From: Escherichia coli
Lineage (GTDB): Bacteria; Pseudomonadota; Gammaproteobacteria; Enterobacterales; Enterobacteriaceae
NCBI RefSeq assembly: GCF_048403405.1
Contig: NZ_CP183129.1
Reading direction: 5' to 3' (one strand)
Length of the DNA: 64,000 nt
Shown: positions 22,467-22,780 of the stretch, piece by piece
Layout: each line of letters begins with the position of its first letter
How positions within the stretch are numbered: the stretch's first letter is position 1
Made by a program: the position numbers and the translations under genes
Notes under the pieces: model-generated
Databases searched by the model: none
What the model was told of the DNA's origin: nothing
What the model saw: only the letters and a program-made list of their open reading frames with translations

Positions 22467-22780
22467 GCTATTTCCTAAAGATGAAAATTATTAGAGTCGC
22501 ATTAAAAATGAGCTAATTTTGATAGTGGTTATCTTGTGATTATTTTCTAATGAGCCTGTGAACTGAGACCCTCCATGCTTAATATAAGGTGGAGGGAAAG
22601 GTGATTAAAACTCCCCCAGTGGCCAGATCTTTATAAAATATGAACAGGTTGAAAAAATCAGCAACTTAGCTGTTTATTTATACTTAACCACTATGCATTA
22701 ATGCTGCGTTATTTCATGATACCTAAGAAAAACCAGCGTTACGCAAATAATCAACGCTGGTTTTATCCGGTACGTTGCAA

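Follow-up and report, generated by a model that had tools for sequence, protein, structure and literature searches.

Between the convergent genes yhiN and yhiM of Escherichia coli lies a spacer that attracts attention by its length, and the question is what, if anything, it encodes. The question was addressed in a window of 64,000 nucleotides of an E. coli genome (contig NZ_CP183129.1; the window is the whole stretch of DNA analysed). A reading of this window from its sequence alone had pointed to an unusually long gap between the two genes with two hairpins, the stronger of them terminator-like, and had suggested that the remaining 250 bp or so could hold a small RNA or a small protein. The features that bear on the answer are collected in Table 1.

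Table 1. Features in and around the yhiN-yhiM spacer (window coordinates)
Feature	Position	Strand	Basis and remarks
pitA	19533-21032	-	Annotation of the RefSeq record of the identical strain 4621
yhiN (rdsA; BaiN/RdsA-family flavoprotein)	21264-22466	+	ORF, annotated in the RefSeq record of strain 4621 (identical); convergent with yhiM
ATTGC, insertion point and 5-bp target-site duplication of the Tn7-like Tn6230 (pco/sil element)	22446-22450		In yhiN, 17-21 nt before the end of the stop codon; unoccupied here
Spacer: untranslated 3' tail of the yhiN transcript (+) and short yhiM 3' UTR (-)	22467-22780		AT-rich, lineage-specific, not conserved
Hairpin 1, CCCTCCA/TGGAGGG with inner CTTA/TAAG stem	22569-22596		-15.1 kcal/mol, z -3.4; lineage-specific
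GTG ORF, 11 codons, MIKTPPVARSL, GGAGG upstream	22601-22636	+	The spacer's only ORF preceded by a Shine-Dalgarno sequence; probably not a gene
Hairpin 2, yhiM intrinsic terminator	22729-22764	-	Folding, invariant stem, published stem-loop, Northern-blot length
yhiM (DUF2776 inner-membrane protein)	22781-23833	-	RefSeq annotation; convergent with yhiN; part of a hypervariable island

The spacer and the yhiM terminator

The spacer measures 314 bp and has a GC content of 35%; the corresponding values are 55% for yhiN, 46% for yhiM and 50% for the window. Identity over 22400-22850 is 100% with E. coli strain 4621 (NZ_CP103479.1) and about 96% with K-12. The other ten annotated convergent spacers in the window measure 2, 3, 48, 53, 60, 70, 96, 101, 122 and 189 bp. 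The description of the spacer as unusually long holds locally, since it is the longest of the 11. Among the RefSeq genomes listed, no annotated feature lies inside it. The small protein gene yhiY was considered as possible content and ruled out, as the K-12 RefSeq annotation puts it between yhiI and yhiJ.

Both flanking genes have been described in the literature: yhiN is mentioned 46 times in a PNAS paper of 2024 whose subject is ribosomal RNA dihydrouridine synthase (PMC11317573), and yhiM has been linked to acid stress (PMC6604978). The mechanically delimited open reading frame of yhiM (22781-23932) uses an upstream ATG and has 383 aa; RefSeq and a primer-extension study (PMC6604978) use a GTG start, which gives 350 aa.

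Both hairpins exist, and their stability is above chance when compared with dinucleotide-preserving shuffles of the spacer (n=300). Of the 300 shuffles, 2-3% contained at least one 40-nt window with an energy of -15.1 kcal/mol or lower, and none contained two. The arms of hairpin 2, AAAACCAGCGTT/AACGCTGGTTTT, pair perfectly over 12 bp (22729-22740 with 22753-22764) around a loop of 12 nt. On the + strand it reaches -15.4 kcal/mol (z -4.5) and on the - strand -17.5 kcal/mol (z -4.8), and no shuffle folded as well. The stem begins 16 nt past the yhiM stop codon and is followed on the - strand by the tail UUUUUCUU, a good U-run; the + strand tail, UUUUAU, is a weak one. The flanking A-run and T-run are present as they had been described. 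In nine E. coli haplotypes, not a single change was found in the stem; variation is confined to the loop, and the energies range from -15.4 to -18.7 kcal/mol. The loop exceeds the 3-8 nt typical of intrinsic terminators (in K-12, two extra pairs reduce it to 7 nt). A simple terminator scan missed the hairpin because its loop is above the scan's 8-nt limit.

It was right to call this hairpin a terminator. A stem-loop centred about 35 nt past the yhiM stop codon was proposed as the yhiM terminator of E. coli MG1655 in 2017 (De Biase lab, AIMS Microbiol 2017, PMC6604978), and hairpin 2 is that stem-loop. The two agree in position, in the perfect 12-bp stem with its CCAGCG/CGCUGG core, in the U-run on the yhiM strand and in the identical sequence of the stem. 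They differ in the loop by 2 nt (AATAATC in the window, AATGGTC in K-12), so that the window strain has a 12-nt open loop and -15.4 kcal/mol instead of -17.9 kcal/mol. The yhiM band of 1127 nt seen in Northern blots of K-12 fits a transcript end at hairpin 2 (PMC6604978). The yhiM terminator has therefore already been described, and it is the one functional element of the spacer. On the - strand, it would act as the Rho-independent terminator of a monocistronic yhiM mRNA.

The sequence-only reading had also held the hairpin to be usable in both directions. This part of the claim is only partly supported: the U-run is good on the yhiM strand and weak on the yhiN strand, and yhiN-sense read-through in K-12 is Rho-dependent. 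The concept of bidirectional terminators between convergent genes, composed of an A-tract, a stem and a U-tract, reportedly goes with the SEnd-seq work of Ju et al. from 2019. Hairpin 2 is like them in being one stem between convergent genes with symmetric A5 and T4-5 flanks. It is unlike them in adjoining yhiM while lying 262 nt from the yhiN stop codon, in its short U-run in the yhiN direction and in the Rho dependence observed in K-12.

Transcription across the spacer and the small RNA question

For the yhiN side, the published evidence comes from K-12. A Rho termination region has been placed on the yhiN-sense strand at K-12 position 3635932 (-) (Adams 2021, supplementary file 2, PMC7815308). 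In a gap-free alignment, it corresponds to about 22742 in the window, which is inside hairpin 2. Bicyclomycin shifts the downstream/upstream coverage from 27/72 to 143/97, and the Rho score of 3.9 was computed over 800-nt windows, so that the position is coarse (Adams 2021, PMC7815308). Since the read-through is sensitive to bicyclomycin, Rho does much of the termination in the yhiN direction in K-12. Taken with the coverage, the Rho region also implies that the yhiN transcript spans the whole spacer and needs Rho to stop.

This arrangement resembles Rho termination in untranslated 3' regions followed by trimming of the 3' end as far as a stem-loop (Dar and Sorek 2018, PMC6061677; Adams et al. 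2021, PMC7815308). The likeness lies in the long untranslated stretch past the yhiN stop codon and in the bicyclomycin-sensitive boundary at hairpin 2. In contrast to those regions, the spacer has no clear C-rich, G-poor rut segment on its + strand (C 53, G 58), and no precise 3' end has been mapped here. The Northern-blot length and the Rho dependence of K-12 may be carried over to the window strain by analogy. The yhiN (rdsA) transcript would then cross about 260 bp of untranslated sequence before it reaches hairpin 2, and would be halted mainly by Rho, at or past the hairpin. In this direction, hairpin 2 itself may provide at most partial intrinsic termination through UUUUAU. It probably serves as a stem that protects the 3' end of the Rho-terminated yhiN transcript, and Rho and hairpin 2 together would restrict antisense transcription into yhiM.

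A yhiN-sense transcript that crosses the spacer, as it does in K-12, with a stable 3' stem-loop at hand in hairpin 2, might also hint at a small regulatory RNA that ends at this hairpin, whether transcribed independently or processed from the yhiN 3' UTR. The fold of the whole spacer, which is better than that of the shuffles on both strands (z about -3.3), points the same way. We nevertheless consider a small RNA highly improbable. An Rfam 15 scan of 21000-24500 with E-values up to 10 returned only two chance matches, both to eukaryotic families (E 5.7 and 7.6). One promoter-like site was found where 0.9 are expected by chance. No Term-seq 3' end is listed for the spacer in K-12 (3635894-3636207; Adams 2021, PMC7815308). 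Moreover, the + strand tail of 4 U is poor for an Hfq-type 3' end, and the spacer sequence is missing altogether in 1119 genomes and in a third, more distant lineage (see below).

The pairing in the spacer also argues against a structured RNA of this kind. The good fold of the whole spacer is due to the pair of local hairpins together with a 10-bp inverted repeat, and uncompensated changes disrupt the long-range pairing as well as hairpin 1. A perfect hairpin 1 occurs in just two of the nine aligned haplotypes, that of the window lineage and one other. The arm reads TGGATGG in K-12 and TGGAAGG in several lineages, and the opposite arm reads CCCCCCA in O157. As these mismatches are uncompensated, hairpin 1 reaches only -7.5 to -10.5 kcal/mol in K-12, O157 and other haplotypes. 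This is about the random level, since the best window in a shuffled spacer averages -10.0 kcal/mol. An uncompensated T-to-C change leaves the left arm of the 10-bp inverted repeat mismatched in five haplotypes of the nine. In neither structure was a compensatory change found among the nine haplotypes. A dispersed repeat (REP, BIME, ERIC or MITE) was also considered and rejected; the spacer is single-copy, and its short inverted repeats are AT-rich and uncompensated.

Sequence variation in the spacer is close to the silent rate. Variable columns make up 39 of 319 in the spacer (12%) and 39 of 398 at yhiN third codon positions (10%), in a comparison of nine haplotypes that are at most 7% apart and therefore give low power for short elements. 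The 60-bp stretches with low variation are 22500-22559, with two variable sites, and 22680-22739, with four.

The short open reading frame

The GTG open reading frame at 22601 is the candidate for a small protein. It has only 11 codons in the window because of a 1-nt deletion. Elsewhere, further indels alter its length: it runs for 28 codons in K-12 (about 3636073-3635987, -), for 33 codons in several lineages and, in O157, for 50 or more. Variants of 28-37 aa appear sporadically as "hypothetical protein" in GenBank records of E. coli and Shigella. Together with the SD-like GGAGG or GGAAGG, 5 nt before the GTG, and with the N-terminal 22 or so codons that are open in most haplotypes, these records could be taken to mean that a genuine small-protein gene of 28-37 aa exists in other strains and has been inactivated here by the frameshift.

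We give this very little credence. A protein whose length and C-terminus vary by indels between 11, 28, 33 and at least 50 aa, and in which all substitutions seen are non-synonymous, does not look like a conserved product. RefSeq annotates it neither in K-12 nor in any other genome listed. No Pfam or NCBIfam model matches the variants, and the frame was not found among the searched entries of the ribosome-profiling table of Stringer et al. It is also missing in B2-type strains. Judged by its sequence, the frame is probably a frameshifted remnant of the 28-37 aa open reading frame of other strains, and not a gene.

The suggestion that the 250 bp beside the terminator hold a small RNA or a small protein is thus unsupported: there is no conservation past the terminator, no Rfam match and no Term-seq 3' end in K-12, promoter-like sites are at chance level and the open reading frame is frameshifted. 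Neither an independent transcript nor conservation beyond the terminator was found, the two observations to which the sequence-only reading had itself tied its suggestion.

Lineage-specific spacers and the Tn7-like attachment site

If the spacer holds no gene, its length calls for another explanation, and this comes from the comparison of lineages. The long type of spacer occurs in 4234 genomes. A short spacer of 86 bp, which cannot be aligned to that of the window, is found in 1119 of 5426 complete E. coli genomes, including E2348/69 (B2-type). Homology of the long and the short spacer was rejected, as a global alignment yields scattered matches only. The short spacer has a REP-like hairpin of its own at the yhiM stop codon (CAGATAAGGCG...CGCCTTATCTG, -18 to -20 kcal/mol). 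A plasmid or phage origin of the long spacer was rejected as well: across 4270 genomes, it is present at a median of one place per genome, and the three "plasmid" matches are records of 4.8-4.9 Mb, that is, mislabelled chromosomes.

A third, more distant lineage is represented by Logan metagenome contigs (L097, L098), in which yhiN is 84% and yhiM 76% identical to the genes of the window. The convergent order of yhiN and yhiM is kept, and the spacer has 69 bp (L097 2052-2120), cannot be aligned to that of the window and carries a different hairpin (GTTGCCGGATT...AATCCGGCAAC). This 69-bp spacer contains TGTACACCTTAAAGTTGT, of which the 10-mer TTAAAGTTGT may be an insertion relic or a chance match (about 0.002 for its 8-mer core). 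Across the three divergent haplotypes, with spacers of 314, 86 and 69 bp, a hairpin at the yhiM end is the sole recurring feature. By the same comparison, the spacer appears to be fast-evolving and dispensable.

The replacement is not limited to the spacer. Between the window and E2348/69 (L004 8052-9700), identity is 98% up to 22452 and 96.5% again from 27825. In between, the segment 22780-24024, which comprises yhiM and its upstream region, is 77% identical (79.6% for the yhiM coding sequence, against 98.4% for yhiN), and the segment 24025-27824, with two DUF4049 genes, has no counterpart in E2348/69. The spacer is long here only because the whole segment past the conserved end of yhiN differs by lineage.

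Some further observations concern this island and its surroundings. The two tandem DUF4049 genes (yhiL-/yhiJ-like, 24216-27689) are absent from B2-type strains. Both are intact in the window strain, and yhiL is an annotated pseudogene in K-12. Homologues of YhiM fall into an Escherichia-type group of 79-99% identity and a next group of about 60% (Alphaproteobacteria, Actinobacteria and others), with no enterobacterial intermediates; this gap is consistent with horizontal acquisition by the Escherichia lineage. A second variable island of the window lies at 33168-43500, downstream of yhhJ, where IS fragments (ISAs1, IS630) accompany an RHS element with immunity and orphan toxin-tip pseudogenes.

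The boundary at the end of yhiN coincides with a known target of transposition. The yhiN/yhiM junction is the attachment site of the Tn7-like Tn6230, or pco/sil element (PMC10121019, hotspot #3; PMC8417528; PMC11406308), and a 2024 review stated that the molecular details of the site at yhiN were not known (PMC11406308). The insertion point and the ATTGC duplication can be read directly from genomes. In strain 204446, the junctions are ...gatttgATTGC/TGTCCGAGG... and ...CTCTACACA/ATTGCagcgaag, where the slash marks the junction. The right end of the element, on the tnsA side, faces yhiN and changes the tail of YhiN from AKSF* to VRGQ*, the open reading frame still having 400 aa. Of 5426 complete E. 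coli genomes, 647 (about 12%) carry this junction, in a single orientation.

The site is like a "safe site" of the attTn7 type: it is a fixed point past a conserved coding block, with a 5-bp duplication, one orientation and the tnsA-side right end towards the target gene. Unlike attTn7 at glmS, where insertion takes place downstream of the stop codon, Tn6230 enters the last five codons of yhiN and supplies the replacement tail VRGQ*. In 20 other Enterobacterales, YhiN is conserved as far as ...WACAQ(A/D)L, beyond which its tail is free; the last five codons are past this block. The attachment point lies outside the spacer, which, as far as can be told, is apparently no part of the recognised sequence.

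An active transposon target, used in 647 genomes, at the very place where the lineages part might suggest that an old insertion or replacement at the Tn7-like site left the 314-bp spacer behind as a relic, perhaps along with the entire yhiM/DUF4049 island (22451 to about 27824). In its fullest form, this proposal would trace the segment from the Tn6230 point to about 27824 (spacer, yhiM and both DUF4049 genes) to at least one ancient Tn7-like insertion that has since decayed; the three spacers would be scars of such events and TTAAAGTTGT would be a surviving relic of a TnsB site. In this form too, the proposal is improbable. The 98% identity to B2 does give way to unalignable sequence no more than about 2 nt from the target-site duplication, and it returns only at 27825. 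The 69-bp spacer of the third lineage holds TTAAAGTTGT, a repeat that is present twice in each end of Tn6230. In addition, yhiM lies downstream of yhiN in none of 80 loci listed from other genera. We still consider such an origin unlikely for the spacer as well as for the island, as neither the spacer of the window nor the far boundary of the island shows TGT...ACA termini, a TnsB-repeat motif or similarity to the Tn6230 ends. A relic of a Tn6230 end in the window spacer was rejected after blastn-short and motif searches, which gave only 8-10-mers at chance E-values.

The shared boundary has another explanation. The YhiN homologues of other genera also diverge straight after ...AQ(D/A)L, where the constrained coding block ends, and it is such an end that a TnsD-type targeting protein exploits. 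The Tn6230 insertion point and the haplotype boundary therefore coincide because the constraint on YhiN ends there, and the spacer needs no transposon origin.

Very probably, then, the stretch between the two genes is a lineage-specific spacer that encodes nothing and borders a variable chromosomal island. It would be made up of the yhiM terminator and the Rho-terminated tail of yhiN, with the rest drifting neutrally and no hidden gene. The roughly 260 bp besides the terminator, hairpin 1 and the GTG frame included, would be subject to neutral drift and could be replaced wholesale. The yhiN-yhiM spacer is ordinary and already known. Its importance is little, and the analysis removes a candidate for a small RNA or a small protein; the by-products are of practical use, namely the Tn6230 site and the island boundary. 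The yhiN-yhiM boundary separates core DNA of 98% identity from an island that is about 20% divergent and variable in presence and absence. B2 strains differ in both the yhiM allele and the terminator, which is relevant to the use of the spacer as a neutral integration site and to the expression of yhiM under acid stress across phylogroups.
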